Shown piece after piece: positions 1,272 to 61,470 of a stretch of 64,000 bases of DNA. Both the position numbers and the translations under genes were made by a program. The DNA is from Verrucomicrobiota bacterium (GTDB taxonomy: Bacteria > Verrucomicrobiota > Verrucomicrobiia > Chthoniobacterales > JAFAMB01). Below the pieces are notes generated by a model. That model was given only the letters and a program-made list of their open reading frames with translations. It searched no databases and was not told where the DNA came from. Location of the stretch: positions 34 to 64,033 of the forward strand of contig JAFAIO010000144.1 in assembly GCA_019236675.1 (NCBI GenBank). Reading direction: 5' to 3'. Position 1 is the stretch's first letter, and each line of letters begins with the position of its first letter.

Positions 1272-2672
1272 CCCTTCAGGATCTTAGCCCCCGGGGCTCA
1301 TCCGTTCATTGCGGGAAAGGATTCAGGGTCGGTGGCAGGGTTCGAGATCCTGAGGCGAATTTGCGAAGAGGAACCAAGAAGGCCTTCCGATTGCGCGCAG
1401 ACGCAAGACCGCTCCTTCTACAGGAAGTTGAGCGGGGATCTGGAAGCCGTCGTGTTGAAAGCGCTACAAAAGAAACCCGGCGATCGCTATAAAAGCGTCG
1501 AACATTTTATTGACGATGTTGAAAGTTTCCTGGAGCGTCGTCCGGTTTTAGCGCGGCGGCAAAGCTGGTGGTATCAAACACGTAGATTAGCCAGTCGTCA
1601 TCCAAGCGCTACGGTCTCGGTTTCGATAGCAGCAACTGTCGGGATTTTAGCTCTCGCCGGCATTCTAAGTTCGGATCGAGCGGCAAAACAGGAACGTGAC
1701 TATGCTTTTCGGCAACGCGAGCTCGCTGCATCTACGGCTAGAACAATGATCGACGAGACTGCTTCCTCGTTGGGGACCATGTCGGCACCTATTGAGCACC
1801 GGCTCGAATTGCTCAATCGGATTGTGGCGGTTTTCGATGAACTCGATTCGACTAGCCGCAGCGGTTCTGATCCGGCCAAGAGCGCTCTGGAGATACGAGC
1901 CGAAGCCCAAACTCAAACGATCCTCGCGAATGCTCTTGAGGAATTGGGTGATCTCCAAGCCGCCACGCAGCGCGCCCAGAGCGCGGAGGTCCTCACGAGA
2001 AACTTGGTGAAAATCGCGGTCACTGATCCAGATGACCAACTACTCCTGACAAAGGCGCTTCTGACCAGGTACGGTATTGCGTGGAAATTAGGAACCGCAA
2101 AAACGATGGATGCAACGTTAGCCGAGGCTATTGCGACATTGCGGGGACTGGAAAAGGGAGCCGATCTAACGCCAAATTCGCGCCATCAGCTAGAAATCCT
2201 TGTTTGTAACGCGCTAGCGCTTAAGGTCCGAGCTTATGATTCTCTGGTCGACCCGCAGGAATCATTGCGATTGCTTACGGAAGCTGTCAATTATGGTGAA
2301 CCGGCCTACCTGACCCACCGGCTTGAGCCGGAAGCCGTAGATTGCTACGCCGGCAGTCTTGAAACACTGGGAGCGTTCTACAAGAGTTGGGGTCGGATTG
2401 CTCTTATGCAGGAGACAGTTCGGAGGGCGTTAGCGATTCGCCGCAAAGCTGCAGATGAGGCTCCGGACGATATCGCGTTGCAGCGCCTCGCCGACGCCTA
2501 CCGTGTTGAACTCACCCTCGGTCCCTGGGCGTCGCGTCTATCCGCACGCAATAGGTGCAACCGTTTCGAGGCGTCGAAACCCGTGCGAGCTAATAGAGCG
2601 GAATGCAACGCCCCTCCGAATGGGTGGGAGAACACGCGTCCCCTTTTCACCTCTCATCACTCACCACTTTAA
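1272..2672 (+). pseudogene. Remnant of a TPR-type Ser/Thr kinase lacking both the catalytic domain and the C-terminal third; paralog of the gene at 29908..32811.
   Basis: The translation is collinear with the middle of the 967-aa kinase (GDRYKSVEHFIDDVESFLERRPV, TM segment, ERDYAFRQRELAAS, RALAIRRKAADEA). The frame opens only after a TGA at 1269-1271 at ...GAHPFIAG, downstream of where the kinase domain would be. Similarity ends at about 2515, where a repeat arm begins. Confidence 0.7.
2522..2665 (+). repeat. Solo arm of repeat family A (same family as the arms at 47884-48013 and 48293-48437).
   Basis: It shares GGGCGTCGCGTCTAT, GCGAGCTA, the 21-mer GCGGAATGCAACGCCCCTCCG (2598-2618) and a TTCACCTCTCA tail with the arm at 48293-48437. 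Confidence 0.7.
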
Positions 2673-4465
2673 AGAGTGCCAACCAGGGCGACTGGTGCCG
2701 AAAGCTGTGAGGGCAACGGCATCACGACTTGTTCGCGTAACGGGATAAAGCGAGATAGATCAAAGACCTGGTCATGAAGCCTTAGCAAGGTGCTTCTGTG
2801 ACCCACACTGATGACGGTGGGTTGCCATGACCCAGAACGGAGCAGGCTGTACAGGCGTGCCTCCCAGGGTTCGCCTAAGCCCGAGGTTGCTTCGTCAAGG
2901 AAGAGGAGCTTCGGTGCGGCCAGCAGCACTCGAGCAAAAGCCAATCGCTGCTGCTCCCCGATCGACAGTCGTTGGCTCCAGTCTTCGACAACATTTAACT
3001 CCTCAACTAACCCATCCAACCCAACATCTCTAAGTACGTTTTTGAGTCGATCGGCGGAAAAACCGGTTCTGTCAGGGTTAGGGTATAACAACGCATTGGT
3101 AAGCGTTCCAAGTGGCAGATACGGACGCTGGGGCACAAATAGAGCGTCTTCCTCACCCACATTAATTTCGCCGCGACCAAAGGGCCAGACTCCAGCGATT
3201 GCTCGCAGCAAGGTGCTTTTACCTGTTCCGCTTGGTCCGGTAATTAGCACCGCTTCGCCGCGGACCGGTGCGAATCTGATCCCGCGCAACAGGGGAGTCC
3301 CATCTGGTAAATCCAGATCTAAATTATCGACATCAACCACCCGGTCGCTGCGTCGAATTACGATCTGCCGCCGGGCGAAGGCCGGCGTCTGCAGCCCAAG
3401 GAGTCGTTCCTGGAACGTAGTGAGCCGATCGGTGGCAGCTTGCCACGCGGCTATGTCGGGGTAGCGATTGATGATAAATGAAAGCGAGTTGTAAACGTAG
3501 GAAAAAGCACTGGCTACTTGCATCAAGCCGCCCCACCCAATCTGCTTTGCGAAATAGCGGGGCAAAATCACTAACAGCGGAAAAACCACCGCAACTTGTG
3601 CGTATCCTTGGGTTAACCAGTTAAGACGCATCTGCCTCCCCATAATCATTCGGAAATTGTTGCAGATGTTTTGTAACCGCTCCTGGCAAATGTCCTGCTC
3701 GACCGGTTCGCCACCGTAGGACGCAACGCTTTCGGCGTTCTCGCGCAACCGGGCCAAGCCGAATCGGAAATCGCCTTCCAGACGCTGGCCGGTTAGATTC
3801 AATTGCACGAGCGGACGGCCGATTTTCACTGTCAGCCAGGTGCCAACGCCCGCATAAAGTAAGGCTAGCCACACGAGGTAACCGGGGACGTGGACCGTGC
3901 CCAATTTACCTAGAGGAATATCCGCTTGCCCGGATAGCCCCCAGAGAATAACAAGAAAAGAACCCAGGGTAACCAAAGATGTTAGTAGACCCAGGGAAAG
4001 CGTCAAAACGTAGTTCGTAAATTGATTGATATCCTCAGCGATCCGTTGATCTGGATTATCCACTCCGCTTGTCAGTTGCAATTGGTAGTACGCACGGTTA
4101 GAAAGCCAGGCGTTTATGTATCTTCGGGTCAGCCACCGCCTCCAGCGCAGCTGCAACAGCTGTTGTAAGTACACAGCGTACACCGACAACGTTATGCCAA
4201 GACTGCCTAAAATGAAGAAGATACCGAGCTGACCGAAGATTTGGTCGACGTCAAATGCCTGCAGCGCATTGTAGAAATTTCGGTTCCACGCATTGATTCC
4301 GACGCTAGTGCAAACCGTGCCTAGATTAATTAGGACAACGCCTAGAAGAAGACCCCAAGCGGACCATTTTTCTTCTGACATCCAATAAGGCCTGACAATG
4401 GACCACGCCTCGCGCGCAAAGGCTCGCTTAGTCATGGTCATTCTCATCTTTCTGAGCATTAACAT
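2669..4465 (-). CDS. ABC transporter with a fused permease and ATPase (YddA / ABCD-like, ABC_membrane_2 type).
   Basis: It has an N-terminal multi-TM region (NRNFYNALQ, RRWLT, DNPDQRIAEDI), Walker A GPSGTGKST, signature LSIGEQQRLAFARVLL and Walker B LLFLDEATSGL. The start is placed at the MLMLRKMRM cluster (ATG at 4465; alternatives down to 4435). The track start at 4699 is probably too long. Confidence 0.85.
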   Translation of the reverse strand: MLMLRKMRMTMTKRAFAREAWSIVRPYWMSEEKWSAWGLLLGVVLINLGTVCTSVGINAWNRNFYNALQAFDVDQIFGQLGIFFILGSLGITLSVYAVYLQQLLQLRWRRWLTRRYINAWLSNRAYYQLQLTSGVDNPDQRIAEDINQFTNYVLTLSLGLLTSLVTLGSFLVILWGLSGQADIPLGKLGTVHVPGYLVWLALLYAGVGTWLTVKIGRPLVQLNLTGQRLEGDFRFGLARLRENAESVASYGGEPVEQDICQERLQNICNNFRMIMGRQMRLNWLTQGYAQVAVVFPLLVILPRYFAKQIGWGGLMQVASAFSYVYNSLSFIINRYPDIAAWQAATDRLTTFQERLLGLQTPAFARRQIVIRRSDRVVDVDNLDLDLPDGTPLLRGIRFAPVRGEAVLITGPSGTGKSTLLRAIAGVWPFGRGEINVGEEDALFVPQRPYLPLGTLTNALLYPNPDRTGFSADRLKNVLRDVGLDGLVEELNVVEDWSQRLSIGEQQRLAFARVLLAAPKLLFLDEATSGLGEPWEARLYSLLRSGSWQPTVISVGHRSTLLRLHDQVFDLSRFIPLREQVVMPLPSQLSAPVALVGTL

Positions 4466-5103
4466 ATTGCGTGCCAAACCTTCGGATCCGCTGTTTTTCT
4501 CCGAATTCCGGGCGATTAAGCACACATGACGCGGGTAGATCGTCCGTTCGAAATCTCGTAAGCTCGATTTTCCGGCTCCGCCGAACGAGACACACTGATG
4601 CTTACCGGATACGACGGACCAGGTCGATTGTGCCGGAGTTGGGATCGTGGCTTTCCCGATCTTGGGAATTAAAAGGGTGCCGGAAAGCGAACGATGCAAC
4701 GGCAGCGCCGTGTCCCATTGCGGGCCCTCGGCTCGGCACGCATTCCGGCGCAGTCACATCTTTGTAAGGCGAAACGCCAAATCGTTGCAAAAATTCCGGG
4801 ATCTTTTGGGAGCCTTCGCCCTGCCAACATGGGGTCTCCGTTCAATTCAAACTATTTTCAAAATCTCATTGACGGTTACGATCTTGATTTCATATCAGTC
4901 TCGTCCGATCGCGTAGATACCCGCTCCCCCGCGGGGCCTTGTCGGCGCGGGATAACAAGGAAGTAAAAAAGGAAAATGCGTTCGGTTAATGCTGTCTATG
5001 GGTTCGGTCTGACGATCAATCCCTCGTTGGTCCTGCCGGATCCTCTCTGATGGTTCCGGTCCCAAGCTGGGACCCTAATTTCTCATCCGCGGTAAAAGTG
5101 TAC

Positions 5104-18078: not shown

Positions 18079-18113
18079 CTGCTCACTGCTCACTGCTCAC
18101 TGCTCACTGCTCA
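18079..18113. repeat. Heptanucleotide tandem array (CTGCTCA) x5 plus a partial copy; it contains the stop codon of the giant gene.
   Basis: I counted five perfect copies directly. The minus-strand TGA at 18104-18106 lies in the fourth unit. Confidence 0.95.
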
Positions 18114-21100
18114 CTGCCCCCTTCCTCCCCTCCATACCCCAGCACCTCGACCGTTATCAGCGACGGCGCGACTTCCTGCTCGGTTGCACTTGTCTGTTGT
18201 CTGGCCACTTCCTGCGCGACGCTGCTATTCGCTCCAGCACTATTGCTCGCGGCGATAGCGGCACTGACATTTGGCCCCACGATCGTCGGGAGGCCGACTG
18301 CGTGCCCTTGAACTTGAATGTTCTGCACATGCAAGATTTCCAGAGCCGCAAGTGTTAGATTGCCGGAAACTCGGATACCCGCTTCGCCGGCATCGATGAT
18401 CCCATTGGGTGCGAACAGATCCACGTTCCCCGGCGGCACCCCGGTCACGCCGACCAAGGTTGCGATCCCAGCGCCGGTTTGGGGTGTGGCGGGGATCTCC
18501 GTCATATTGACCCAGAGGTCATAGAGCGTATTGGGAGAACGCGTTACAATTGAGGTCTGTTTACCCTTTCCTGCATTAATGTCTCCGTGGCTCGACCAGA
18601 TCAAAATATCGCCACCCAATTCGGTGAATATGCGTGATTGCGCCACGACGACGCTCTGGTCAGCAACGATATTGATGTTTCCACCTTCCATAGTGATTAA
18701 CCCGGGTTCCGCCGTATCGGTCTGACCTGTCAAGTTTGGAACATCACTTTCGACGCCGAGGACCACTCCACCTCCCGGGACCATAAGGTTGATGTCACCG
18801 CCTTGTTCGGTCCGGATACGCGCATCATGGTAAAGCGTCAGCGACCCACTATAAGCCGTGGTTGGGACACCAGCTGCTACCGAACTACCAGGAAACAGGG
18901 TCTCGATGGCTTTATAACCCCGACTATAACCGACTTTCGTGGCAGCATACGATTCGCCGCCGGCTTTAATCTCATCGAAGTAAATTTCTGAAATGAGTGG
19001 CCATTGTTTAGCAGTCGATAATTGTTCGAAATCAGCTAACGCTTCGACTGAGGTCAGCGTCGAACCCTCGAGCTGATTCATGTAAGCCACGAGCCGAGGT
19101 AGATAATTCTTCTGGACCGACCCTGCGTTCGCCGGATTCAAATAGGTGTTAATAAACCCGGTGATATCCGCTCCGTTCAAGCCAACACCGACCGATATGT
19201 CGATGTTCGCACCGCCCGGGAGTAAGTAGTATGGATTGTCCGTGTTACCGACGCTTTCGATACCGATACCCTGGGTATTGTATTCGCCCGGCTCGGAGAC
19301 GATATTGCGTCCAGCCTGCACCACCAAAGTTCCCGGCCCCTCAACCCGGATATTGAAAACGTCAGTGCCTAAAATTCCGCCGGGTTGTGCGCTTGTGATA
19401 TCTCGTCCCGCTTCTACCAGCGAAGAATCGTTGGGACTCGTGTTTTCGATGTTAAACACCGGCTGAACAATATCTAGACCTGCCCTAATCAACACGCGTT
19501 CTGGCGTTGCCAGCGCCACACTGTTCAGGCTCCCCTCTACCGCATAAACAACCACGGTATGCGGATCATTAGACAGAACCAGATTGGATGGTGGCCCTAC
19601 AAACACATTACCGGCCGGTCCGACCGGTCCAATATATTCGTAAGCATCTAAAATCGTTCCCGGATAGTCGTAACCCGACGGGGCGGCAATCATGCCCAGA
19701 TCAGGAATACCGCTCGGTTGGAGGTAAACCCCATTTGACTCAATGCTCATATCCGCAGCCGTCATACTGACACCGAAGCCCCGGACATCTTGCTGCGCCA
19801 GAATACTCAGGCGGGCGGTTGGTGCAGGCAACGCAACGAGATAATCGCGGAAAGAGAGATCTCCCATGATCGAGCCGTTCGCGGCGACAAATGAAAGGAT
19901 GGGCGGTGCGAAACTACCTAGCACCGTTACGTCGCCACCTGCGGCGAATTCACTGAAAGAGCTGTTGGCAGTCATGCTGCCAAAAAACCCATAAGGTACC
20001 GGCGCATTGGCCGGATCCGTAAGGCCTGGGTTTAGTCCTTCCAAACCCCAGTACTGGGTCCAGCCACCTTCTTGCTCTGCTATGCCATCATTGTTCTGGC
20101 GGAGTGTACGCGTTGGGTCACCAATCAGCCCATAAATATTTTGTTGCGAATAAACGGTAAATTGGGAGTCGCTGATCATAAAATTGACGCGCTCCTGGAC
20201 CCCTTGGCTGTCTACGGCCGTACCCATATCTGCTGCTTCAATCAACGCGGTGCCTTTTCCGACGTAAAGATTGGCATCGTTCAGCGAGCCGCCGACGCTC
20301 AGATTGAGGTTACCACCGCCGGTGATAACTACCTGGTTGTTGCTACCGACTCGCCCCGTGGTTGGCAGGCTCACGTCTACGTTCGTCATGTTACCGCCAA
20401 CGCTGACGTTAACATTGCCGCCGCCGAGCGCACCTAGTCCCAAGAACCCCGCCACCGTTGGCGCGATGTCCGCACCTATGCTGTTTGCATAAGCCATGTC
20501 CTGGTAATAAGTACCGAAATTGATGAACCAGGTGGGACTGGCTTGGTTTGGTTCGGTCCAAAGCCAATAGGGATCGAGCTCGCTTCCGGCATAACCGCCG
20601 AGATTAGTCGATTGGCTGACCAAGCTGCCTTCGACCTTCACGGTTAGATTGCCGCCTCCGGTCGGATAACTTGGGTATAAAGCCGTCGGGTACGTATTGT
20701 CCCAGGGAACGCCGGGCGATTGATAGCCTAGGTAAGAATTGTTTCCGACCACCGACGAAATATATTGGCGGACCGGCATAGTAAATCCGGCGACCGCAGC
20801 CGACGGCTGGCCTGCGGTATAAATCCCGAATTCTGTCTGGATATCAATGTTGTCTGCGGCCGCCAGCTCTAGGTCGCCTGTTCCGGTGCGAACGACGCTT
20901 GGGATTTCTAAAGCGGCGCCAAGAGGCGAGGAACCGTTGCTATCGACCAGGTAGGGAGCATTGAAAATGACGGAACCCGGCTCGGGATCATTCGTGGAGG
21001 CGGCGGGCACGTTAATCGCCGCTATCAAACCGAGCGGGTCCGCAGCCTTTAAATCAGCGCCTCCAATCAAACGCAGGCTCCACGACGGACCACCCGCCAG

Positions 21101-24100
21101 GGGTGCAATGGCGAAGATCGGGCCGTCCGGAGAAACAACCGGCGCGCTAAATCCGTCGCTGAGGCTGCCGTTGATAATCAGATTGTCAGCCGCCCGTAGA
21201 GTTAGGACGCCCGGCGCTCCGTTAAACCGTAGACCTCCCAGATCGATGCCGTCGTTGTAAATGTAACTCGTACCAGCGTACGGATTGCCAGTGCTATTCG
21301 AAGGGTTAGTCAGAAGGGTCAAATTCCCGTTGCTGCGCAGTTCGATTCCCGGCAACAACTGATACGCAGGATTGCTCGCCAAACTACCCAGGCTGGCGTT
21401 GATTGCGCTGGCGTTGGCCATGAAATTGTTAGCATCAACCACCGCCTGGCTCGTTGTCGTCAGATTCTGATCCACATACGGATTGCTGGTTACATCATAG
21501 ACCGCTACCCCTTCCACGATCAGTTTGTCCGCTCCGGCGACAGTCACTCCCTGATTAGAAATGGCGACGCCAGTGTCATTGATTCGGGGTGCTCGCAACC
21601 AGACTTCATTGCCATTCGGCCCTGTCCCCGAAACGTCGATGATCGAGCCGCCGGCTAAAGTCAACGTCCCACTGCTCTTCCCATCCAGACCAAGAAACAC
21701 GATGCCGCCGGCTCCCTCCGTACTCGTGGCGGAAGCATCCAGAATTGCGGTACTTGCCAGCGTCAGATTGACCCCGGCGGTCAGACGGATGGTGCCGCCA
21801 CTCGGACCGCTGGCGTTGATTGTACCGTAAACCAAGACGCTACCGGTTGAGGCGGAAAGCTCGACATCTTGCGCAGTGATATTTCCGACCGAGATATCGC
21901 CGGTTGCCAATGTAAGCGATTGTTCACCGGTAAAAGTAGTAACGGCGCCAAGCAAACTGGAGGCATCACCGGAGTTTAGGTTCAAGATTACTTTGCCTCC
22001 GGTATACCCTTGCGGTGCAGTACCAAGAAAACTACCGCCTAGCTCTGCTGCCCCGTTCGGAGCGATTACCGTAAAAGTTCCTGCGTCACCGCCAGTATCG
22101 GAGTCTGCAACATCCAGATGCGAAACCGTGGTCGAAGAGAGCGAGCTGCCGCTGACATTGACAACGGCGCCCGGCGCGACAACCACGTTGCCATTGGTGG
22201 TTTGCAACGTGAGCGAACCGGCCGGCGCAATCCGAACCACATCAAAAAACGGGGTTATCTCACCGGCTACACTGATGTCCGCACCGCTGCCTAAGGCAAT
22301 ACCGTTCTGGGCCGTGAAGGTAATCGCTCCGGAGGGTAAAACGATCTTAGTATTCTCAACCATCGTCTGTGCATTTACGTTGAGTGTCGCTCCGCCTACG
22401 GCGACCGAAGTCACAGTGGTAACCGTCCCAGACGGGAGAAAGCTCACGGCGCCGCTGGCTATCAGTTGCGTGACCGCTCCAGCGGCATCATTCAGGTTTA
22501 ATCGAGAATTCACTGAAGTCACTAGCGGTGTTTGGATGGTCAGATTACCAAACACGTCGAAAGTCCCCGGGATGATCTCACCGTTGTAGTAAGTTGTACC
22601 GCCTACGGTCTCCCCGGCGTATGCGGTTGCTACCGCTTTACTGCTGGTGACGTCACCGGTCGCGACTAGCATGACGTTGCTAAATCCATTGAACGTCATA
22701 ATGCCTCCGCCTCCCAGGACAACTTCGGTCGCATCAATCGTAAATTGCCCCTGCCCCACGCCTGTACCGCTGGTGGCAAGCGTCGTACCTGTGCCTACCA
22801 ACGTTACTTTCCCTGCCGTAATGGTGACATTATCGCTAGCTCCACCAAACCCGTTGATGGTCGGTGTCTCCAAGGTCAGCTGGGACAGCAACGGCAACCC
22901 GGTGGCACTGTTAACAATGCCCAGACTGGCTGAGCCGTACACATCGATCTCTTGAGTCGCATTCAGGATGAGGTTGCCGGTCGGGACAACCCCATGACTC
23001 GGATCGCCTTGAGACAACGCCGCCAGCAGACTATTCGTTAATATCAAACCAGTGCTAGCCCCGGAACCAAAAGCAATGATCGGAGTCTGGACCGTGACGG
23101 TCTGACCGCCAAACCGCGCGTTAGGATCGATGCTGATATTTTGCGCACCCAAAAATAGCGTGCTGCCTGCGTAAATGCTGGCTCCCGGGTCGACAGTTAG
23201 GGAGGCACTCCCTTCGGTCTGATTAACCGGAAGCGGATTACCTGCTGCATCCAGTACCGCATCCGATACGAGAAGAAATGCACCCGGACTGGTGAGGGTT
23301 ATCGAGCCCAAGCTCGCTCCGGAAATTGGATCGAGTGGGAACTGCGCGGCGATGGGCGCATATCCAGTTGAATCGATTCGTGCGTTTGCCGCCACCGTAA
23401 TCCCTCCGGTAGCTGTTAACATGATCTCAGGCCCGCGTAACACCGCATTCGCATCAACAATAATCGTTTGAGCGGACGGAGTGATATCCACCGAGCTGTT
23501 GGTCGAATCGAAGTTCCGAACGCCGCCAAGTAGCAAGCTCTGTACGCCAAGTGCGTCTAGTTGACTGGCCTGAATGCCGACATAACCAGGCTGCGCGGTG
23601 TCGCCCGGACCCAGGATATCGAGGTTCCCCACCACGATATCAGCTTGCCCGCCTCGCGCTCCGGGTGCATACGAAAAGTTGGTAGCCCCTTGGAAAACAA
23701 AATTGCCGGTGTTAGTCGTGATATCGACTATAAGATGGCCGGCATCCCGCGCCAGATATGGCGTGACTGTGCTAGTAGAAGTTGCCAGCGCAGGAAAGAA
23801 ACTGTCACCCGTCGCTTGTGTGTACTCTGAATACTCTCTGAGGACGGATCCAGGCGACACCAGAAAGACCGACGGCAACGAGTCTTGTACGTCGGTGTTA
23901 GCTACCATCCGATAGCCGATCACTTGATAGGAACCGTCCGCCAACTCGAGATTAGTCAATCCGGCGGTTGTAGTCTGACCAGCTTCAACGCTCAGTTTGT
24001 AGGCTCCAGGCAACAATGCATAATGTCCAGGTAAAAGGGTGTAATCGCCGGCTAGCAATCCCGGAATAGCAGTCAAATAGACTTGATCCCCAACGGTAAG

Positions 24101-27100
24101 GTTGACCGGAGGAGCACCGCCCGCTGCCGGATTGCTACTCTGCATTACCGGGTCGATAGGAGCGTAGTGGTTACCCAGGCTCGGCAGAATGGCGAAGGTC
24201 TCCGTACCGTCCAACGTGTCGGTCGACCCGCCGGATCCACTGATGAACTGCGTTGCATAGATGTCGCCGCCGCCGGATTCATCGATCATCGCCGCCGGCT
24301 TACCACCGCTCGCCCCGGAGATGGTGACGTTTTGGCCGTAGAAGGCGATTAACTTCTGCGGTGGCGCAAATAGGGTGACGCCGTTATAGTTCCATTGATT
24401 AGCACCGAAGGTGGCGCCGTAAGGAATCAGAGTACCATCCGCCGATACCGACGTGATACTGCCGGGCAACAGGTTAATATTTGTTGCTTGGGTGCCGCTA
24501 CTGTTGGAGTTGCCAAATGTGATTTGGCCAAGCGGAGCCAATATAACTCCGCCTTGGTTAATCGTCGGTGCGACAATCTGCACGGCCCCGGCCGCGGACA
24601 GCGGTACATAGGGAGTTACCCCTGTTCTGGCGAAGGTGATAACGCTATTCATTCCGCTGGCCAGAATCTCAAATAGCGTATTGGCGCTAGTAGTGCTGGC
24701 GTTGGATTGCGGCTCACTCGTAACCGGATAAACCTCTGTCGCGGTGAAGTTGAGGTCTCCCAGCGTGGTTAGAAGGCTGGGACCGGCTAGAGCAGCGTTC
24801 ATTGGGACCAAGCGAATGTCACCGGTACTATTGAACGAGACCGTTTTAAAGCCGGCCAGGGAAACCGGATTCGTGGTGAGTGTGCCATTCTGGGAGGTGG
24901 TTGAATTGTACACGCCATTATAGAGGTACTGGTAAGTCGCTCCGCTGCGCAGGAGCCCTTCGATGTCGATCAGGTCAGCGTTGATATTCAGCACCGCGGT
25001 GCCTGCTACTGGCGTGGAGGTAGCGCTCGGTGGCGTAAAAGCGTCAAACCCAATACCGCCGATATACTCCGTAGTCCCCCCTCGTTGACCACCGCCGATA
25101 TTAACATACGGCGCGCTAAGGGTTACCACCGCGCCGTTGAGCGGAGCTACTACAGCGCCGTCACTAATTACGTCCGTCCCCACTTCGGACAAGGCAATAA
25201 CTGTGCCGTCGCCGATGTTGCGCGCGTTAATTCTTAAGCTCTGGGACAAGCTGAAGTTGACGTTACCGTTGAAAATGACCGCATCGACAGCGCCCAGCGA
25301 CGCGCCGCTAAATCCGCTGTTCATTATTTGATCAGCGCCGATGAAGAGTTCGCCCGCATAGGAGCTGGGGATAGCCTGACCAACCTGCAATCCGGTCGAC
25401 AGCATCGGATCGTTCTGGCTAATAACCAGGAGAAAAACCGGCTGCTCAAAGGTAGGATTGCTGGCGTTGCTGGTATAATCTCCAGCAACCTGATCAACGA
25501 TGAAATTACCTCCGGCGGATCTCGGCCCGCCACCCGCCGCCTTCATAGTGGCGTCGAACCACAGCCCCATCGATGCGGTCACGGCGATCGTGCCACCGTT
25601 ACTCGACACGCTGAGCGGATTTATTAGTTTCCCACTTAGATTCGGCTGAAGATATTGATAAAGTGTTCCGTTGGCTCCGGACACATCGATTAGCGCGCCG
25701 GCCTTTGCCACAACTGTTCCCAGCGGTATATCCACGGCCGGTTGATCTTCCGGATATGGATAATACGGTTCCAGATCCTGGTTAATATTAACTGTACCGC
25801 CATCCAGCAGAACATTTGTCACGCTCCCATTCGGGCCGGCAAATGACTGGATCAAGCCCGGGGCAAGCAATCTGGCATCGGAACCGATCCAGAGAGTCTG
25901 TTCGGCCGACGGGAATGGGGCATCGAACGGCTGTCCTGCAAACCCGGCACCGCCCACTGAAACAACTGGCCCGGATGATCCTGTGAGATCCAAGTCGATG
26001 GTGCCGGCCGGAGCGTAAATAGTTCCGTCAATGGTTAGTTGATGCCGCGCGTGTAACGCAATGGTCGCCTGTGGATCAGCATTAATGATCGCGCCATGGC
26101 CAAAGACGAGATCACCCACGAACGCGTCGGTTGCGCTCAACAGCAGGTTCACTGGGCCCGGGAGTTCGTAAGCAGGCGCTCGGCCGATTGGGGCGATGTT
26201 GGCCGGATCAGAGCCGCTAGGGGAGAAAACCGTGCCTCCATTCGGCACAAAATTGATAGCATGGAGCTCCAGGTCTGTGCCATTCGCGATAGTGACACCC
26301 TGGTAGCTATAAAGCGAATATTGACTGAAGCCGGTCGTCGTAAAGAAGCTTGGGCTGAGCAGAAGCGGCGTGGTTACAGAGGAAGGCGTGCCGCCTGTTT
26401 GGGTCATACCACCACCCTGGCTCGTGCTCCCTACTCCAGCTTGGCCGGATAATGGGGGAAGGGAACCACCGATTTGAATACCGGGGGTCACGATAGTCAG
26501 TTGCCCGCCCGCAGTGAAACCGAAGGAGCGTACGATACCATCTAAATACACCTGGGTCGGATAAGTCTCGGGGACGGTTGAACCTTGAGTCGGATCGGAT
26601 GAGCTAGTCTGGAGCGCATAGTCGTCCGCGAGAAGGGTGATATTGCCACCCGTGCCCACCGAGAGACCGTTGCTATTGGCCTTGATTTTGCCATTAATCT
26701 GAACCCAGCCGCCACTAGAAGCGTCAATCACCGCTCCGGTATCGATCCGCACATCATCATAGCTCTCGATCGTTACGTTCCCACCGTTGTAAAGCGTCGG
26801 GATCACTGCGCCTCGATCCACGAAATCGTTTACCCATAGACCACGCGTATCAATCACGCTGCCGGGCTCGAGGACGATGTCGTATGTCGGCGGGGTTAGT
26901 CGGGGTGCGGCATTGTTAGCATACAATGAAACTGAGCCAGCCGGAGCTATGAGGCTCCCGCTGATTGTGATCGCCGGCGTGGTAGTTGTGACTCCGGCTA
27001 CAGTAGTTGTGAGTCCGCCCGTGGCATTGATAGTGATTGATCCTCCCGGGGCCACTTGCACGCTGGCATTTCCAGTGACCTGAAAGGCGCCGGTTGAAAT

Positions 27101-29635
27101 CGAAATGCTGCCATAGCCAGCCTCGTCGAGTAAAGTAGCAGACAGATATAAGGTTTTCTGCCAATCATCCGGCAATGGTGAAGTATCGGAAGCAAAAGCA
27201 GGCGGTGCAACTACCGGTGCGATCACGACTTGGGTCGGGTTCACGGAACCGCCGATAGTTAGCGACCCTGCAGCTGGCAGCGTCGTAGCGGTACGCTGGA
27301 AGGGCCCGCTAACGGCGGAAGCATTGACTGTGGCATCAAGCTCCGAGTAGGTCGACTCAATGGTTAGGCTGCCCGCCGGTTTCCCTTCTACATACGCGCC
27401 TTCGTAGATTTGGTTCGGCAACATCGGGTTCGCATACGATTCGTTTACTCCCCACCGTGGATGGCTCACACCAAAATGATCTCCGATTGAAACATAAGTG
27501 AGGTCGGCGGGAGCGTTATTAACCGTGTAAAGATGTCCGTCAGCACCCAGCAACCACGTTACCGGAACGTACCCAGCTTGATGGTACAACCAGCCGCCCT
27601 CAATATCGATCGACGATTGCGGTCGCAAAATGGTGTCGCCACCCGCGTCAACCGCGATCGAGCCGCCGGTCGTGAGGCGTTGATCGATGGGCCGCTCGGT
27701 TAAACCGAGCCAGCCGGACACCTCGAGTAATCCGCCCGCCGTATATACTTGCTGGCCGGGCACCACCGTATTTAATCCATTGATGTTGACCCACACGTTT
27801 TGGCTTTCGAGGACGCCGTTTCGCTGGAGCGGCGAATCGCGCAACTCGTTGGCCCGCACATTCACTTGAACCGCGTCATCTTGCGCCGGAACCAACACAT
27901 CCCCAAGCCCGGAAACGTCGATTAAAGCGCCGTTATCCACCCAAACCCGGGAAGTATCCAGCGGACTAGTCGGATTCAAACTGCCGGGATTGTCATCGAC
28001 ATAGAGGTTCGTCCCGAGGCTGGAAACCTCGAGCGCAACGTGGCCGGAAGGTGCGAAAATCGTTGCGTTCGATAGCACATTGATCGTCTGGGCCTCTATA
28101 GAGACGATGGATTGCGGCTGAGTTTGCGTGTCCATCGCCATCGCCCCATTTTCCTCGGGCAAGACGGCGGTGATGCTGCCACTCGCCAAGGTCACGGTGC
28201 CGGTTTGGGTTGCAGAGAGGACGTAACCGGTACCTTGGTTATTAGCCACGATGGTCAGCCCGGCGCTCACCAATGTGCCGTTGTAGATCGGGCCGCCGCT
28301 GCCCGCAAATAGCGTGATCGAGCCGGCTTGATCAACCGACGTCGTTGCCGCTAATACCCCGGATTGACGAACGTTCATACCGGTCATCGTGATGTTGCCG
28401 GTTGACGCCTCGACGAGACCGTTGTTGGTCACTGTCCCGCCGTTGTCCATCAATACGGTTACGCCGCGGATGTTTGGGTTGGTACTGGGGGTTAAGTAAA
28501 CGTCGCTGGGAAACGTGTAGGCTTGAGGACTTGACCGGGGTGGCGACAGCCAGTGGTAGGACGAGACGCCGGGCACTCCACTCGAGCCAGCCGGCAGCAC
28601 GACGACGCTTGGTTGACCGGTGGCAGCCAGCACCGTTTGGCCATCCGGCGTGATGATCGAACCGTCATTCTCAACGTCGCTACCAAAAAGATAAATGCTT
28701 CCACCTCCTGTTTTCACGGAGGCTGGTGGGGATGTCTGGATCACGGCGCCCGCCTTGACAACGATATCCCCTGTCGGCCCCGAGTTGTTGACAAAGGTCG
28801 GAGGATTGATGACCGCATAGAAGCCGGCGATTGTGTATGGCTCTTGATTGATTATTCCGGTCAAAAATTGCGCATCCGTGATTCCGACTGCCGACCCGAT
28901 AAACGAATGCGTGTTTACCTGGCTGGAACCACCGAAGATGATCCCATTTTGGTTAATGATGTACACACTCCCTTGAGCGACGATCGAGCCGAGGATTTGG
29001 CTGGGTAAAGCGGCTGGATCCAATACGCGGTTCAATGCGATCCAGGTGTTACCGGAATTGCCGCCGCCGCTCTGATTGAAATACGCGGTTGTATTCTTGC
29101 CGACGTTAAACGTTTGCCAGTTCAGGATCGCTTTCTGCGCGGTTTGCTGGATCGTCACCATGGTCCGCCCATTCGCAACGGATTGAACCGGCTCGCTCGC
29201 TCCTACCCAATCCGCGTTTTGACCGGTCGCGACCTGCAATCCGCCCGGGATCAATCCATTAGGAACTTCCGGCAACTGTTGCTGCGGATTCTGCGGATTG
29301 ACCCCCAGATTGTTAGCACCCGCTAATGCCAAGTTGCGCGCTGCCTTTTGCATTACCTGCACCGACTGGATGGCTTGGTTCGTTCGCGTCAAAATATCGT
29401 TGGCATTGGTCGGCAGCTGCGACAATGCTGCCTGGTTTCCGCCGTAATAGGCAGCCGCGCCCACTGAGGAACTACCAGACGGACCGTCGTGAAGAATGTT
29501 CCCTGTCCCTGCTATACAGGCCTCTGCTAAGAAAAGGGATAGCACTACTAACGAAGTTCGCCTGAAGCTCGCTTCGGAACACCAACTGGAGCGCTGCCTC
29601 GCTTGCGAGGCCGGAGGGGCCGCCACCCTGCTCAC
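18104..29635 (-). CDS. Giant TpsA/FhaB-family exoprotein (about 3,840 aa from the GTG at 29635; the track ORF of 3,914 aa starts at a TTG at 29848). It has a TPS secretion domain, a long beta-helical repeat body and a DUF3739-like C-terminus.
   Basis: TPS-domain motifs: QKAILNWQTFNVGKNTTAYFNQ, WIALNRVLD and VYIINQNGIIFG. The body has thousands of residues of Gly/Asn/Thr-rich beta-helix-like repeats. C-terminal motifs: HGDINAGKGKQT and IDAGEAGIRVSGNLTLAA. No in-frame ATG precedes the signal-like segment RRTSLVVLSLFLAEACIA; candidate GTG starts are at 29635, 29626 and 29545. Confidence 0.85.
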   Translation of the reverse strand: MSRVAAPPASQARQRSSWCSEASFRRTSLVVLSLFLAEACIAGTGNILHDGPSGSSSVGAAAYYGGNQAALSQLPTNANDILTRTNQAIQSVQVMQKAARNLALAGANNLGVNPQNPQQQLPEVPNGLIPGGLQVATGQNADWVGASEPVQSVANGRTMVTIQQTAQKAILNWQTFNVGKNTTAYFNQSGGGNSGNTWIALNRVLDPAALPSQILGSIVAQGSVYIINQNGIIFGGSSQVNTHSFIGSAVGITDAQFLTGIINQEPYTIAGFYAVINPPTFVNNSGPTGDIVVKAGAVIQTSPPASVKTGGGSIYLFGSDVENDGSIITPDGQTVLAATGQPSVVVLPAGSSGVPGVSSYHWLSPPRSSPQAYTFPSDVYLTPSTNPNIRGVTVLMDNGGTVTNNGLVEASTGNITMTGMNVRQSGVLAATTSVDQAGSITLFAGSGGPIYNGTLVSAGLTIVANNQGTGYVLSATQTGTVTLASGSITAVLPEENGAMAMDTQTQPQSIVSIEAQTINVLSNATIFAPSGHVALEVSSLGTNLYVDDNPGSLNPTSPLDTSRVWVDNGALIDVSGLGDVLVPAQDDAVQVNVRANELRDSPLQRNGVLESQNVWVNINGLNTVVPGQQVYTAGGLLEVSGWLGLTERPIDQRLTTGGSIAVDAGGDTILRPQSSIDIEGGWLYHQAGYVPVTWLLGADGHLYTVNNAPADLTYVSIGDHFGVSHPRWGVNESYANPMLPNQIYEGAYVEGKPAGSLTIESTYSELDATVNASAVSGPFQRTATTLPAAGSLTIGGSVNPTQVVIAPVVAPPAFASDTSPLPDDWQKTLYLSATLLDEAGYGSISISTGAFQVTGNASVQVAPGGSITINATGGLTTTVAGVTTTTPAITISGSLIAPAGSVSLYANNAAPRLTPPTYDIVLEPGSVIDTRGLWVNDFVDRGAVIPTLYNGGNVTIESYDDVRIDTGAVIDASSGGWVQINGKIKANSNGLSVGTGGNITLLADDYALQTSSSDPTQGSTVPETYPTQVYLDGIVRSFGFTAGGQLTIVTPGIQIGGSLPPLSGQAGVGSTSQGGGMTQTGGTPSSVTTPLLLSPSFFTTTGFSQYSLYSYQGVTIANGTDLELHAINFVPNGGTVFSPSGSDPANIAPIGRAPAYELPGPVNLLLSATDAFVGDLVFGHGAIINADPQATIALHARHQLTIDGTIYAPAGTIDLDLTGSSGPVVSVGGAGFAGQPFDAPFPSAEQTLWIGSDARLLAPGLIQSFAGPNGSVTNVLLDGGTVNINQDLEPYYPYPEDQPAVDIPLGTVVAKAGALIDVSGANGTLYQYLQPNLSGKLINPLSVSSNGGTIAVTASMGLWFDATMKAAGGGPRSAGGNFIVDQVAGDYTSNASNPTFEQPVFLLVISQNDPMLSTGLQVGQAIPSSYAGELFIGADQIMNSGFSGASLGAVDAVIFNGNVNFSLSQSLRINARNIGDGTVIALSEVGTDVISDGAVVAPLNGAVVTLSAPYVNIGGGQRGGTTEYIGGIGFDAFTPPSATSTPVAGTAVLNINADLIDIEGLLRSGATYQYLYNGVYNSTTSQNGTLTTNPVSLAGFKTVSFNSTGDIRLVPMNAALAGPSLLTTLGDLNFTATEVYPVTSEPQSNASTTSANTLFEILASGMNSVITFARTGVTPYVPLSAAGAVQIVAPTINQGGVILAPLGQITFGNSNSSGTQATNINLLPGSITSVSADGTLIPYGATFGANQWNYNGVTLFAPPQKLIAFYGQNVTISGASGGKPAAMIDESGGGDIYATQFISGSGGSTDTLDGTETFAILPSLGNHYAPIDPVMQSSNPAAGGAPPVNLTVGDQVYLTAIPGLLAGDYTLLPGHYALLPGAYKLSVEAGQTTTAGLTNLELADGSYQVIGYRMVANTDVQDSLPSVFLVSPGSVLREYSEYTQATGDSFFPALATSTSTVTPYLARDAGHLIVDITTNTGNFVFQGATNFSYAPGARGGQADIVVGNLDILGPGDTAQPGYVGIQASQLDALGVQSLLLGGVRNFDSTNSSVDITPSAQTIIVDANAVLRGPEIMLTATGGITVAANARIDSTGYAPIAAQFPLDPISGASLGSITLTSPGAFLLVSDAVLDAAGNPLPVNQTEGSASLTVDPGASIYAGSTLFLGAQNISIDPNARFGGQTVTVQTPIIAFGSGASTGLILTNSLLAALSQGDPSHGVVPTGNLILNATQEIDVYGSASLGIVNSATGLPLLSQLTLETPTINGFGGASDNVTITAGKVTLVGTGTTLATSGTGVGQGQFTIDATEVVLGGGGIMTFNGFSNVMLVATGDVTSSKAVATAYAGETVGGTTYYNGEIIPGTFDVFGNLTIQTPLVTSVNSRLNLNDAAGAVTQLIASGAVSFLPSGTVTTVTSVAVGGATLNVNAQTMVENTKIVLPSGAITFTAQNGIALGSGADISVAGEITPFFDVVRIAPAGSLTLQTTNGNVVVAPGAVVNVSGSSLSSTTVSHLDVADSDTGGDAGTFTVIAPNGAAELGGSFLGTAPQGYTGGKVILNLNSGDASSLLGAVTTFTGEQSLTLATGDISVGNITAQDVELSASTGSVLVYGTINASGPSGGTIRLTAGVNLTLASTAILDASATSTEGAGGIVFLGLDGKSSGTLTLAGGSIIDVSGTGPNGNEVWLRAPRINDTGVAISNQGVTVAGADKLIVEGVAVYDVTSNPYVDQNLTTTSQAVVDANNFMANASAINASLGSLASNPAYQLLPGIELRSNGNLTLLTNPSNSTGNPYAGTSYIYNDGIDLGGLRFNGAPGVLTLRAADNLIINGSLSDGFSAPVVSPDGPIFAIAPLAGGPSWSLRLIGGADLKAADPLGLIAAINVPAASTNDPEPGSVIFNAPYLVDSNGSSPLGAALEIPSVVRTGTGDLELAAADNIDIQTEFGIYTAGQPSAAVAGFTMPVRQYISSVVGNNSYLGYQSPGVPWDNTYPTALYPSYPTGGGNLTVKVEGSLVSQSTNLGGYAGSELDPYWLWTEPNQASPTWFINFGTYYQDMAYANSIGADIAPTVAGFLGLGALGGGNVNVSVGGNMTNVDVSLPTTGRVGSNNQVVITGGGNLNLSVGGSLNDANLYVGKGTALIEAADMGTAVDSQGVQERVNFMISDSQFTVYSQQNIYGLIGDPTRTLRQNNDGIAEQEGGWTQYWGLEGLNPGLTDPANAPVPYGFFGSMTANSSFSEFAAGGDVTVLGSFAPPILSFVAANGSIMGDLSFRDYLVALPAPTARLSILAQQDVRGFGVSMTAADMSIESNGVYLQPSGIPDLGMIAAPSGYDYPGTILDAYEYIGPVGPAGNVFVGPPSNLVLSNDPHTVVVYAVEGSLNSVALATPERVLIRAGLDIVQPVFNIENTSPNDSSLVEAGRDITSAQPGGILGTDVFNIRVEGPGTLVVQAGRNIVSEPGEYNTQGIGIESVGNTDNPYYLLPGGANIDISVGVGLNGADITGFINTYLNPANAGSVQKNYLPRLVAYMNQLEGSTLTSVEALADFEQLSTAKQWPLISEIYFDEIKAGGESYAATKVGYSRGYKAIETLFPGSSVAAGVPTTAYSGSLTLYHDARIRTEQGGDINLMVPGGGVVLGVESDVPNLTGQTDTAEPGLITMEGGNINIVADQSVVVAQSRIFTELGGDILIWSSHGDINAGKGKQTSIVTRSPNTLYDLWVNMTEIPATPQTGAGIATLVGVTGVPPGNVDLFAPNGIIDAGEAGIRVSGNLTLAALEILHVQNIQVQGHAVGLPTIVGPNVSAAIAASNSAGANSSVAQEVARQQTSATEQEVAPSLITVEVLGYGGEEGGSEQ

Positions 29636-29664
29636 CGTCGGCCTCGCAAGCGAGGCAGCGCTCC
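29588..29664. repeat. Repeat family B, compact copy: perfect 26-bp inverted repeat with a 25-nt loop.
   Basis: GGAGCGCTGCCTCGCTTGCGAGGCCG (29588-29613) is the exact reverse complement of 29639-29664. The flanking 2 bp also pair. Confidence 0.9.
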
Positions 29665-29857
29665 AGGACTGCACTTGGTGAGCGGAGTACCCCCCATCTT
29701 TAGTAGAGAACGCGAGTTCTAGTTTTCTATGGTTACAATCTCGCGAAGTCTCGGCTACCTGCTTCGAGCGTCGTAAAAAGTTCCCCACACCGCACTTAAT
29801 GCGGAATTCTTCTGCGAATGGGGCCAGAAATTTTCCGCCTCGGGGCAACCCTTGTTT

Positions 29858-46878: not shown

Positions 46879-47075
46879 GGAGCGCTGCTCGCTTGCGAGA
46901 CCGAAGGGGTGGCCACCCAAACCGATGCGCTGAATTCGGTGTGACAGCTTTAACCGTTGTAGACGCCTGCAAGGTTTTTAGGCATTGCGTTCGGAGGGAC
47001 GCGACGCCTCATCCAACTATGGGCAGAAGCGAGCCAACGCTCCGACCGTATCGGCCTCGCAAGCGAGGCAGCGCT
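46879..47075. repeat. Repeat family B, expanded copy (arms about 145 nt apart).
   Basis: The left arm is GGAGCGCTGCTCGCTTGCGAGACCG (46879-46903) and the right arm is CGGCCTCGCAAGCGAGGCAGCGCT (47052-47075). Confidence 0.75.
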
Positions 47076-47085
47076 TAACGGTTCA

Positions 47086-47124
47086 CCTTTCACTTTTCAC
47101 CTCTCGCCCCCTCTCACTTCTCAC
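47086..47124. repeat. Degenerate heptamer array (CCTTTCA / CTTTTCA / CCTCTCG ...).
   Basis: Read directly. It is related to the array at 18030-18078. Confidence 0.6.
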
Positions 47125-47140
47125 GTATGTTCCGGGCGGC

Positions 47141-47881
47141 ATGACTGGTTGGCTAAGTTCAAGCGCGGGTGGGCATCTCGCATTCGAGACCACCCAATGG
47201 AGCTTGGTCTCTGCGGCCAACGACGACGAACAACGGCGGACCGCTCTCGAGGGCCTGTACCGGAGCTATTCCAGCCCCGTGTACGCGTTTATCCGACGCC
47301 ACGGATACAGTCGGCAGGACGCTCAAGATCTTACCCACGATTTCTTTATTCATCTCGTAGAAAAAAAGGCGTTAAGCCGAGCCGATCCGCATCGAGGAAA
47401 ATTCAGGAAATTTCTGCTGGGGTCGCTCCAGTTCTTCCTGCAACACGCTGCCGAGCGAGCCCGTACAGAGAAACGCGGCGGCCAAGCCAAAATTATCTTT
47501 CTGGATGACGAAACCGCTGAAGCCGGCTACCAGCTCGCTGACCCGGGTCAGACCGCCGAACAGATCTTCGACGCCCGCTGGGTCGCCGCGCTAATTGAAG
47601 GTGCGCTTAACCGTTTGGAAGCTGAGATGGAGCACAGCGGTAAAAAAAAGCTGTTTGAGCAAATCTGCGGTTTTCTCCTAGAAGATGAAGAAAGCTCGTA
47701 CGTTGAGGTGGCTCAACGCACGGGTCTCACCCTCAGTGCAGTCAAAGCGGCTATTTATCGGTTACGGGGGCGTTATCGTGAACTTTTGCGCGAGGAGGTC
47801 GCTCGCACCGTGATGAGTTCCACCGACTTCGACGACGAAATCCGCGCTTTTCGCGCCTCGCTGGCGAGGCGTCAGAAGTGA
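47141..47881 (+). CDS. ECF-type sigma factor (sigma2), paralog of sigma1.
   Basis: It begins MTGWLSSSAGGHLAFETTQWS and is collinear with sigma1 over its full length. The ATG at 47141 is used; the track extension to 46985 runs through repeats. Confidence 0.85.
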   Translation: MTGWLSSSAGGHLAFETTQWSLVSAANDDEQRRTALEGLYRSYSSPVYAFIRRHGYSRQDAQDLTHDFFIHLVEKKALSRADPHRGKFRKFLLGSLQFFLQHAAERARTEKRGGQAKIIFLDDETAEAGYQLADPGQTAEQIFDARWVAALIEGALNRLEAEMEHSGKKKLFEQICGFLLEDEESSYVEVAQRTGLTLSAVKAAIYRLRGRYRELLREEVARTVMSSTDFDDEIRAFRASLARRQK

Positions 47882-47883
47882 TT

Positions 47884-48437
47884 GGTGAGAGGTGAGATCG
47901 CACCACCACCCAGATCGGAGGGGCGTTGCATTCCGCGTCCGCTGCTCGCACGCGTGTCGACGCCTGCAATCGTCTACAGGTAACCGGCTTGAACAGACGC
48001 GACGCCCCGGGGACCATGGTGGGAGATGCTCCCGGACGGCCCTATGCCTGAACCGGAGCGGTCGTCGATCCTGTTCGGACGGTGCTGTTAGGCCGGAAAC
48101 CACGCCGAGCCGTGATCCAGCGCTTGGCCACGGCTCCGACTTCGCCGCCGATGGTTGGAGCTAGATGGCGGGCTAGGAAGGCTACGTCTGACAAATCGGC
48201 GCGCCTTTAGGCGTATCGACATCATTCGGCAAAAGGCACCAGGAGCTTCGTTCCAAATGTAAGGACGTTCAGCAGCCTCGCCCCACCAACGTTCCCCGGG
48301 GCGTCGCGTCTATTCGAATCTGTTATCTGTAACGGGTTTCCGGCGTCGATACGGTTGCGAGCTATCAAGCGGAATGCAACGCCCCTCCGTTCTGGATTAG
48401 GCAGCGCACAATCCTCCAATCACGCCTCACCTCTCAC
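47884..48437. mobile_element. MITE-like non-coding element (about 554 bp) with long imperfect terminal inverted repeats (repeat family A), inserted in the sigma2-STK2 spacer.
   Basis: Three complementary cores pair the two arms. GGTGAGAGGTGAG (47884-47896) matches CTCACCTCTCAC (48426-48437). A 21-mer at 47916-47936 matches 48369-48389. A 19-mer at 47995-48013 matches 48293-48311. There is no credible ORF inside. Confidence 0.6.
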
Positions 48438-48479
48438 ATTTACATTGCCACTCCAACATTTTCCGCTAACCCTGGAACC

Positions 48480-61424: not shown

Positions 61425-61470
61425 CTTTCGAAAGGACGCCCGACCAAAGTTAGGCACGGCGACCCAGCAC

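Follow-up and report, generated by a model that had tools for sequence, protein, structure and literature searches.

A probable REPIN-like doublet of long REP-type units between a sigma factor gene and its kinase gene in a Verrucomicrobiota genome

We analysed a 64,000-nt stretch of DNA from a Verrucomicrobiota bacterium of the Chthoniobacterales (GenBank assembly GCA_019236675.1, contig JAFAIO010000144.1, positions 34 to 64,033), hereafter the window. In it, a repeat-bearing spacer separates the gene of sigma2, a sigma factor of the extracytoplasmic function (ECF) type, from that of a Ser/Thr kinase, STK2. The element in this spacer (47878–48437) is probably a doublet like a REPIN, a hairpin-forming pair of repetitive extragenic palindromic (REP) sequences: two ~105-nt REP-type units in inverted orientation, with a 272-nt centre between their 5' ends. 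A REP-associated tyrosine transposase (RAYT) probably copies such doublets in trans. We assign it to a known class (REP/REPIN–RAYT or TIRtron) and not to a new kind, because its units occur solo and flanking a RAYT gene, and because neither a target-site duplication nor a DDE transposase with matching ends was found. The original prediction, made from the letters of the sequence, had announced a new repeat family; as a new kind, that family falls away, since the units fit the REP/REPIN–RAYT or TIRtron class. The genes and the parts of the element are as follows.

47141–47881, plus strand: sigma2, ECF-type sigma factor of 246 aa (Pfam Sigma70_r2/r4_2)
47878–47898, minus strand: left heptamer tail, GTGATTG GTGAGAG GTGAGAT, the reverse complement of (NNNTCAC)3
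47908–48018, minus strand: left REP-type unit (nhmmer E = 2.1e-25; alignments of units)
48019–48290, no strand assigned: doublet centre, 272 nt, without coding signal
48291–48397, plus strand: right REP-type unit (nhmmer E = 9.4e-26; alignment of units)
48417–48437, plus strand: right heptamer tail, CAATCAC GCCTCAC CTCTCAC
48438–48479, plus strand: rest of the ancestral short spacer, including the conserved ATTTTCCGCTAACCC at 48458–48472
48480–51290, plus strand: STK2, Ser/Thr kinase with TPR repeats (Pfam Pkinase; tblastn against orthologs)

As had been predicted, the spacer is long only at this gene pair: 598 nt lie between the sigma2 stop (47881) and the first possible STK2 start (48480), compared with 110 nt in the paralogous sigma1–STK1 pair. 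Its inverted arms comprise 12 nt at the tips (47885–47896 with 48426–48437, 100% complementary), 27 nt further in (47910–47936 with 48369–48395, 96%) and then 70 nt (47944–48013 with 48293–48362, 79%). The exact complementarity claimed for a 21-mer, a 19-mer and a 12-mer is borne out; of the “12-13-mer” described at the tips, the 12-mer is exact and the 13-mer is not. Pairing continues inward, again as predicted, in that the centre holds an inner inverted repeat (GGTGGGAG...GCTCC at ~48009–48035, pairing with AGCAGCCTCGCCCCACC at 48271–48287). The centre also forms a hairpin, GCCGAGCCGTG...CACGGCTCCGAC, and has modules in common with the centre of a related doublet (L021; L numbers denote fetched loci) and with L064:7400–7515. 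The left end, formerly placed at 47884, lies at 47878, the first heptamer holding the sigma2 stop codon.

Alignment of three arms from the window revealed the conserved blocks and variable stretches of the unit. Over ~105 nt it consists of block 1, GGGGCGTCGCGTCT, ~30 variable nt, block 2, GGCGTCGAC, ~25 variable nt and block 3, GCGGAATGCAACGCCCC, followed by TCCG; the left unit shows this order on the minus strand. Blocks 1 and 3 provide a conserved foot stem, GGGGCGT...ACGCCCC, with the TCCG tag beside it. On the 3' side of TCCG, ~12–30 variable nt usually lead to a tail built from 7-nt repeats, (NNNTCAC)n. The 21-mer of the arms occurs three times in the window (expected 0.00), so that it is not unique and the insertion reading stands. 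A solo arm had also been reported and is confirmed as a unit at 2518–2624.

To define the family, the 19-mer CGGAATGCAACGCCCCTCC was scanned against one genome per species. It returned 59 loci, nearly all from four Verrucomicrobiota/Chthoniobacterales metagenome-assembled genomes (MAGs), ~33 of them from a single fragmented MAG, so that the 19-mer alone is enough to sustain the claim of a multi-copy family. Two matches, in Xanthomonas and Bordetella (L005, L038), are chance occurrences of the 19-mer inside genes. A unit profile (nhmmer) found 81 copies across the 59 loci and the window, four of them in the 64-kb window itself. The matches fall between predicted open reading frames (ORFs). The tail side of the unit adjoins a convergent gene at its 3' end in 45 cases, typically some tens of nucleotides away, and in 24 it faces the start of a co-directional gene, mostly farther off. 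Units occur solo or as inverted doublets, and solo at least as often as paired. All 13 doublets have the arrangement (−,+), with 5' ends facing and tails outward, and tandem pairs are seen only beside RAYT genes. Doublets are 330–560 bp long; their cores usually lie ~100–130 nt apart, with wider spacings in the window (272 nt) and in the related doublet of L021 (294 nt).

Two further forms were observed in the family. A 400-bp solo subfamily (L029:4842-5249 and ~15 other loci of MAG DASUWQ01, about 15–18 copies) has no heptamers; its unit is extended by 210 nt on the 5' side and by 100 nt on the 3' side. Its copies are 84–95% identical and bounded on both sides by direct GGCAGCYGCCGGACTA, beside REP-like palindromes; the fold of this element is no better than that of shuffled sequence on either strand (z = 0.07, 0.30). 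L016 and L017 carry identical unit-bearing sequence, with a small REP-like hairpin inside the unit, which is assigned to an Acidobacteriota bin and to a Verrucomicrobiae bin under two different sample identifiers (MFD03346, MFD00731). This double assignment most likely reflects mis-binning.

The link to a transposase comes from loci at which units enclose a RAYT gene. In L041, unit(−) at 6434–6536 and unit(+) at 7093–7196 bound a centre of 556 nt, which encodes a 153-aa protein with one frameshift, scoring 84 bits on the NCBIfam model NF047646 (cutoff 80). Intact homologs of this protein reach 90–93 bits on the same model and 19–26 bits on the IS200 model (cutoff 55), and the HUH motif (PEHIHLF) and the catalytic-tyrosine motif (KWxYVxxNPVRHGLV) are invariant in the RAYT alignment. 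The orthologous locus L150 has an intact RAYT gene flanked by units. In L070/L072, L071 and L151/L152, unit(−) lies ~36–42 nt 5' of the RAYT start and unit(+) 3 to 87 nt past the stop, with a second unit(+) in L070, L071 and L072. Unit-flanked RAYT genes, with the units inverted, are thus found in five lineages and two genomic contexts, and the genes flanking them are syntenic, with 80–85% DNA identity between lineages. The geometry of the doublet is that of a RAYT locus minus its gene.

We searched 80 metagenome loci encoding RAYT relatives with the unit profile. It matched just three, those with RAYTs of the unit-linked clade (78–81% identity), and found no unit at the 77 others, nor at L153/L154, which belong to a 59% clade. 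Flanking inverted repeats are common nevertheless: 37 of the 58 relatives with enough flanking DNA have repeats of 21–147 nt, and those in L070–L072 measure 99–147 nt. RAYT genes at 55–58% identity are flanked by a compact hairpin of ~26 nt, GGGCGTCGC-AA-GCGACGCNCCC+TCCG, whose second arm can be written GCGACGC(R)CCC. This hairpin has the foot and tag of the unit, with a 2-nt loop in place of ~80 nt. Other RAYT clades show GGGAGCCGC...GCGGCTCCCC+TCCA and GGGGCGAGC...GCTCGCCCC+TCCA. By this comparison, the unit is an expanded REP whose foot and tag are homologous to those of the compact sister-clade REPs. The compact hairpin, in keeping foot and tag, shows that a short REP can expand and marks the part that the transposase probably reads. 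Read from the other strand, the tag is (C)GGAG and stands directly 5' of the stem, one base off the classical GTAG (PMC3733652).

The element carries no transposase of its own, in agreement with the predicted non-autonomous nature, which is upheld. tblastn searches of the window with RAYTs gave nothing below E = 0.09, as expected from the earlier statement that no transposase is present, and blastx of the doublet centres for a RAYT remnant gave chance-level matches only. All-against-all clustering of the ORFs near units revealed no recurrent transposase; the neighbours are ABC transporters, dehydrogenases and similar genes. RAYT loci and close relatives of the window come from the same samples, L151 with L060 in one ENA sample and L152 and L070 with L062 in one JGI sample. 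L060 and L062 are 99.97% identical to the window (related contigs, 99.97–100%), and the exact sigma2 protein is encoded on four contigs.

In the mechanism that we propose, a RAYT encoded elsewhere in the genome would recognise, on single-stranded DNA, the imperfect foot GGGGCGT/ACGCCCC together with the adjacent unpaired tag (CGGAG on the other strand). It would cut and rejoin at foot and tag, so that doublets would be copied or moved in trans, as proposed for REPINs, and the solo units would represent half elements or decayed ones. As RNA, the doublet may be co-transcribed with sigma2 and form a long imperfect hairpin starting at the stop codon. REP elements and bacterial interspersed mosaic elements (BIMEs) stabilise upstream messages; the hairpin could likewise shield the upstream message from 3' exonucleases. 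It could also lower read-through and break translational coupling into STK2, which keeps its conserved proximal motif TTTTCCGCTAACCC. An effect of the element on the co-expression of sigma2 and STK2, as first suggested, is plausible.

That the element was inserted is best seen at the orthologous loci. The contigs with sigma2 orthologs have the gene order peptidase, sigma, kinase in common, and none of the following carries a unit.

L068/L069, sigma identity 79%: spacer of ~85–115 nt, no repeat, window-like proximal motif
L065, sigma identity 87%: unrelated foldback of ~290 bp bounded by heptamer arrays
L064, sigma identity 89%: IS110-like element inside heptamer arrays, with subterminal repeats of its own and a weak match to PF01548
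L066, sigma identity 81%: another palindromic repeat

A long spacer is therefore not common to the orthologs. The predicted insertion into an ancestral short spacer is supported on two sides: L068/L069 are short and repeat-free, and L064, L065 and L066 carry different inserts at the equivalent place. The sequence just right of the element (48458–48472, ATTTTCCGCTAACCC), said to be like the sigma1–STK1 spacer, does resemble it, and the motif recurs in four orthologous loci. The insert of L064 (L064:5746-7561) is ~1.6 kb long and lies between inverted heptamer arrays; its IS110-like ORF is frameshifted, and its subterminal inverted repeats measure 15 nt. The foldback of L065 (L065:5759-6028) has arms of 80 nt, 98% complementary, with GTGATTG/CAATCAC arrays at its edges, and a copy of one foldback arm with an array lies just 5' of the sigma gene (L065:4900-4985).

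The last codons of sigma2 and its TGA stop (47879–47881) fall within the first heptamer of the element. The protein ends in ...ASLARRQK, its counterparts in L064 and L065 in ...ASLAKRER and ...ASVGGRRGR, and in all three the TGA belongs to the first GTGA heptamers. In sigma1 and the orthologs without repeats, the C-terminus is ...ASLL-x4-6 and the stop codon is a different one. From this comparison we conclude that the final few codons of sigma2 gave way to the element, which provides the stop. Set against the empty site L068 and the occupied sites of L064 and L065, the window shows no target-site duplication at the somewhat fuzzy boundaries of the element.

These observations bear on the identity first proposed, a classical miniature inverted-repeat transposable element (MITE). 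The element would then be an internally deleted DDE-type insertion sequence (IS) whose 130–145-bp arms act as terminal inverted repeats (TIRs) bound in trans, with a target-site duplication. Long inverted arms, many copies and the lack of coding capacity would all fit, as would the exactly complementary tips and the IS110-like element between matching heptamer arrays in L064. However, the arms are independent REP-type units, found solo at least as often as paired and also flanking a RAYT gene, so that the claim of terminal repeats fails. The conserved blocks are internal, whereas the tips are generic heptamers also found without units. No target-site duplication is visible against the empty site, no transposase recurs beside the 59 loci, and no gene other than a RAYT is bounded by units. 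The L064 element, which has its own subterminal repeats and no unit, is a secondary insertion. We consider a classical MITE very unlikely.

The stability of the fold raises a different possibility, that of a structured RNA acting in cis, be it a leader, an attenuator or a terminator, which arose at this site and regulates STK2 with respect to sigma2. The RNA of 47884–48437 folds at −301 kcal/mol (shuffles −215 ± 6.6; z = −13), and it lies between two co-directional, functionally paired genes. As single-stranded DNA, 47878–48437 folds at −157 kcal/mol, compared with −106 for shuffled sequence (z = −10). Reverse-strand units fold ~3.8 kcal/mol better than those of the forward strand in 40 of 51 cases, which for the left arm is the sense strand of the upstream gene; this asymmetry is uncorrected for G+U content and is not relied on. 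RNAalifold on 59 units kept only the pairing of the block 1–block 3 foot, a conserved stem of 9–15 bp with nine pairs in the consensus. Compensatory changes affect none of the nine, and covariation contributes −0.04 kcal/mol. Foot variation consists of a change from G-U to A-U in nine copies and, by eye, from an adjacent C/A mismatch to C-G in some. A stem that is invariant in sequence and uncompensated fits sequence-specific recognition by a protein. Rfam gave no match, either for the whole window at gathering thresholds or for 47700–48600 and the 400-bp solo element at E-value thresholds. The element is absent from L068/L069 and from the paralogous sigma1–STK1 pair, unrelated inserts occupy L064, L065 and L066, and units lie beside unrelated genes. 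With only an invariant 9-bp foot conserved, the suggestion of a structured RNA is not sustained, and we judge it highly improbable. Hand-built internal hairpins in the unit failed to hold across copies, and an intrinsic terminator was rejected because no U-tract follows the stem in or beside the element on the plus strand.

The unit could alternatively be a small transcription module, in which a mobile ECF-type promoter, TTGAAC-N17/18-CGTC over block 1, drives a short RNA ending in the C-rich TCAC tail. The motif, a putative match to ECF-sigma promoters, is well spaced in many units (the solo unit at 2510–2540 of the window; L003–L056), and ECF-type sigma factors are encoded in the window. Neither arm of the element has it, however, and several other units are without it as well. 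Most units run into a convergent gene from its 3' end, and the transcript would miss the 5' half of the sole conserved stem. A transcription module is accordingly as remote a prospect as an RNA regulator. Two other identities were discarded. An omega-RNA of IS200/IS605 or an IS110 bridge RNA finds no TnpB, IscB or IS110 gene beside the units, and the IS110-like element of L064 holds no unit. An integron attC site (RYYYAAC...GTTRRRY) shows, by inspection, GTTGAAC on one side of the unit only, and the units are dispersed beside housekeeping genes, not in cassette arrays.

The heptamers that form the tails of the doublet are spread more widely than the units. Of the 73 arrays in all the loci fetched, 24 include the stop codon of an ORF that is 120 aa or longer, and 20 of these stops are TGA; the value for random windows is 2.2%. 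In the left tail of the element, the TGAs at 47879, 47886 and 47893 provide one stop per reading frame. Arrays also end at most 13 nt 5' of sigma2 start codons, and inverted array pairs also surround interiors of 37–150 nt. In the window, a 12-unit array (18034–18114, plus strand) overlaps the stop of a 3914-aa ORF (18104..29848, minus strand), and TTACTGA occurs three times at 61408–61425. The STRR heptamers of cyanobacteria are similar tandem 7-nt repeats.

One could argue from these arrays that the conserved entity is the inverted heptamer pair, a landing pad or functional bookend at the borders of genes, whose cargo (units, the foldback of L065, the IS of L064) is interchangeable. Different interiors between arrays at one orthologous site, pairs around interiors of just 37–150 nt, the excess of ORF stops over random windows and the arrays 5' of sigma2 starts all point in this direction. 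Against it, the RAYT-flanking units of L041 and the 400-bp subfamily have no arrays, and the distance between array and unit is variable, with no fixed junction. The idea is also compatible with the RAYT model for the units themselves. As an explanation of the element we hold it to be improbable. Somewhat less unlikely, yet still doubtful, is the broader proposal that the arrays are a distinct, undescribed feature of the genomes of these Verrucomicrobiota. As bookends, (GTGANNN)n and (NNNTCAC)n would form pairs exactly where ORFs end or start, close incoming reading frames by a TGA in each of the three frames and offer preferred landing pads on which RAYT-driven giant REPs, other foldbacks and IS110-type elements gather and are replaced. 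The repeated TCAC/TTAC of the arrays is a possible tetranucleotide target of an HUH enzyme, TTAC being the target tetranucleotide of IS608.

Several points weigh against a RAYT-mobilised doublet. No RAYT could be assigned to the genome of the window, and shared samples are all that links the two. Neither a target-site duplication nor a fixed array–unit junction marks the ends and target of the element, and the heptamer tails also occur without units; they may for this reason be a separate repeat class and not part of the mobile unit. The putative mobility is deduced from the number of copies and from differences in occupancy between species; close strains showed no excision or insertion, L060–L063 being identical. 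The interior of the unit is without a conserved fold, and the 400-bp subfamily, with its different flanks and direct GGCAGCYGCCGGACTA, is unaccounted for by a doublet model. At the RNA level, the effects described above are entirely hypothetical, and neither a U-tract terminator nor a sigma-70 promoter is found in or beside the element. The doublets, at 330–560 bp, are several times longer than commonly described REPINs. Likewise, a unit of ~105 nt contrasts with the 20–40 nt of a canonical REP (PMC3733652).

Further repeats lie near sigma2 and elsewhere in the window.

2518–2624, plus strand: solo REP-type unit (nhmmer E = 2e-26)
46927–47009, minus strand: degenerate fourth unit in the peptidase–sigma2 intergenic region (nhmmer E = 3.4e-10)
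47053–47069, plus strand: compact REP hairpin of a second family, GGCCTCGCAAGCGAGGC (7 window matches vs 0 expected)
47083–47127, plus strand: heptamer array in TCAC orientation, ending 13 nt 5' of the sigma2 ATG; arrays at the equivalent place in L064 and L065

Because of the fourth unit, sigma2 is bracketed by repeat elements on both sides. The compact GGCCTCGCAAGCGAGGC family is also seen at 29596–29612 (minus strand), 29640–29656 (plus strand), 33660, 33705 and 33938, and the same hairpin flanks a RAYT relative (51% identity) in L086. The degenerate TCAC tail of the solo unit (2644–2664) abuts the stop of a convergent ABC-transporter gene, 2669..4699. The ORF running through this unit, 1332..2672, had been taken for a kinase remnant; it has no Pfam match and no significant BLASTP similarity to STK2, and its 3' part is probably a spurious extension.

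The start of sigma2 at 47141 was set by alignment with sigma1. The public STK2 gene call at 48591 (899 aa) drops a conserved Cys-rich N-terminus, RICRGCQKSISPNASFYGYCLDCLL, that can be aligned to the orthologs and to STK1; the true start is probably 48480 or 48495. A proximal motif precedes all STK starts examined (STK1 of the window, L064, L065, L066 and L068). It reads TTTTCCGCTAAC(C)C, with the variants TTTTCCGATAAAACCC, TTTCTCGCTAACTC and TTTTTCGCTAGAC, and is placed 8–40 nt 5' of each start (48458–48472 and 14245–14262 in the window). Sigma–STK pairs may use it as an internal promoter or for translation.

If the RAYT reading is right, REP/RAYT biology reaches soil Verrucomicrobiota, with units three to four times the length of a textbook REP. 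The long sigma2–STK2 spacer would then be selfish or domesticated DNA that has rewritten the end of a sigma-factor gene, and not a dedicated regulatory leader. For annotation, units and arrays create false ORF extensions and misplaced starts, as in ORF 46985..47881, ORF 1332..2672 and STK2 at 48591. Should the proposal on the arrays hold true, intergenic regions would owe their organisation to a target-plus-passenger system in which insertions into the 3' ends of genes are tolerated. In the literature covered, which is incomplete, we found no published description of this unit family or of Chthoniobacter repeats.

Among known systems, REP and REPIN–RAYT elements, reportedly described by Nunvar in 2010 and Ton-Hoang in 2012, share much with the family. 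REPIN–RAYT systems have been treated by Bertels & Rainey 2011 (PMC3116915, PMC3337134). In both cases an extragenic, multi-copy, imperfect hairpin has an unpaired conserved tag beside its stem, inverted doublets are the commonest paired form next to many singlets, and units are placed just 3' of genes, the usual REP position. A small HUH/Y1 gene lies between inverted repeats and passes a curated RAYT model, and the RAYT loci here are syntenic across related species (L070/L071/L151; L041/L150), which would fit the vertical inheritance described for RAYTs. In contrast to REPs, the stem here encloses a variable interior of ~80 nt, not a short loop; the tag is (C)GGAG/TCCG, where the classical one is GTAG (or CGTC); and the host belongs to the Chthoniobacterales, the usual hosts being Gammaproteobacteria, with units that usually carry heptamer tails.

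Bacterial MITEs (Correia/NEMIS, ERIC, RUP; PMC3733652) are also non-coding hairpins beside coding regions that are co-transcribed and can alter the message stability or expression of their neighbours. They differ in having TIRs of 15–30 bp that match a DDE IS, and target-site duplications, neither of which was found here. The heptamer arrays recall the TAACTGA repeats of Beggiatoaceae, Cyanobacteria and Bacteroidetes (MacGregor 2015, PMC4679880), to which no function is assigned in that paper. Common to both are intergenic 7-nt arrays of variable copy number, a few nucleotides from start codons and with stop codons within. The arrays of the window, however, read NNNTCAC/GTGANNN (some TTACTGN) and often form inverted pairs around REP-type elements, and a third of the arrays here contain the stop of the adjacent ORF.

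The closest published description is that of the TIRtrons. According to Di Nocera, De Gregorio & Rocco 2013 (PMC3733652), whose paper names no Chthoniobacter, TIRtrons or TIRYTs are RAYT-like tyrosine transposase genes between long inverted repeats, in place of short REPs with GTAG. The foot of the present units, GGGGCGTC, does not fit the TIR motif GGGGWSAS given there, and the RAYT class is assigned here by an NCBIfam equivalog. Some TIRtron repeats form moderately abundant families and occur as dimers or clusters. As in our loci, a tyrosine transposase is flanked by long inverted repeats that themselves form a repeat family.

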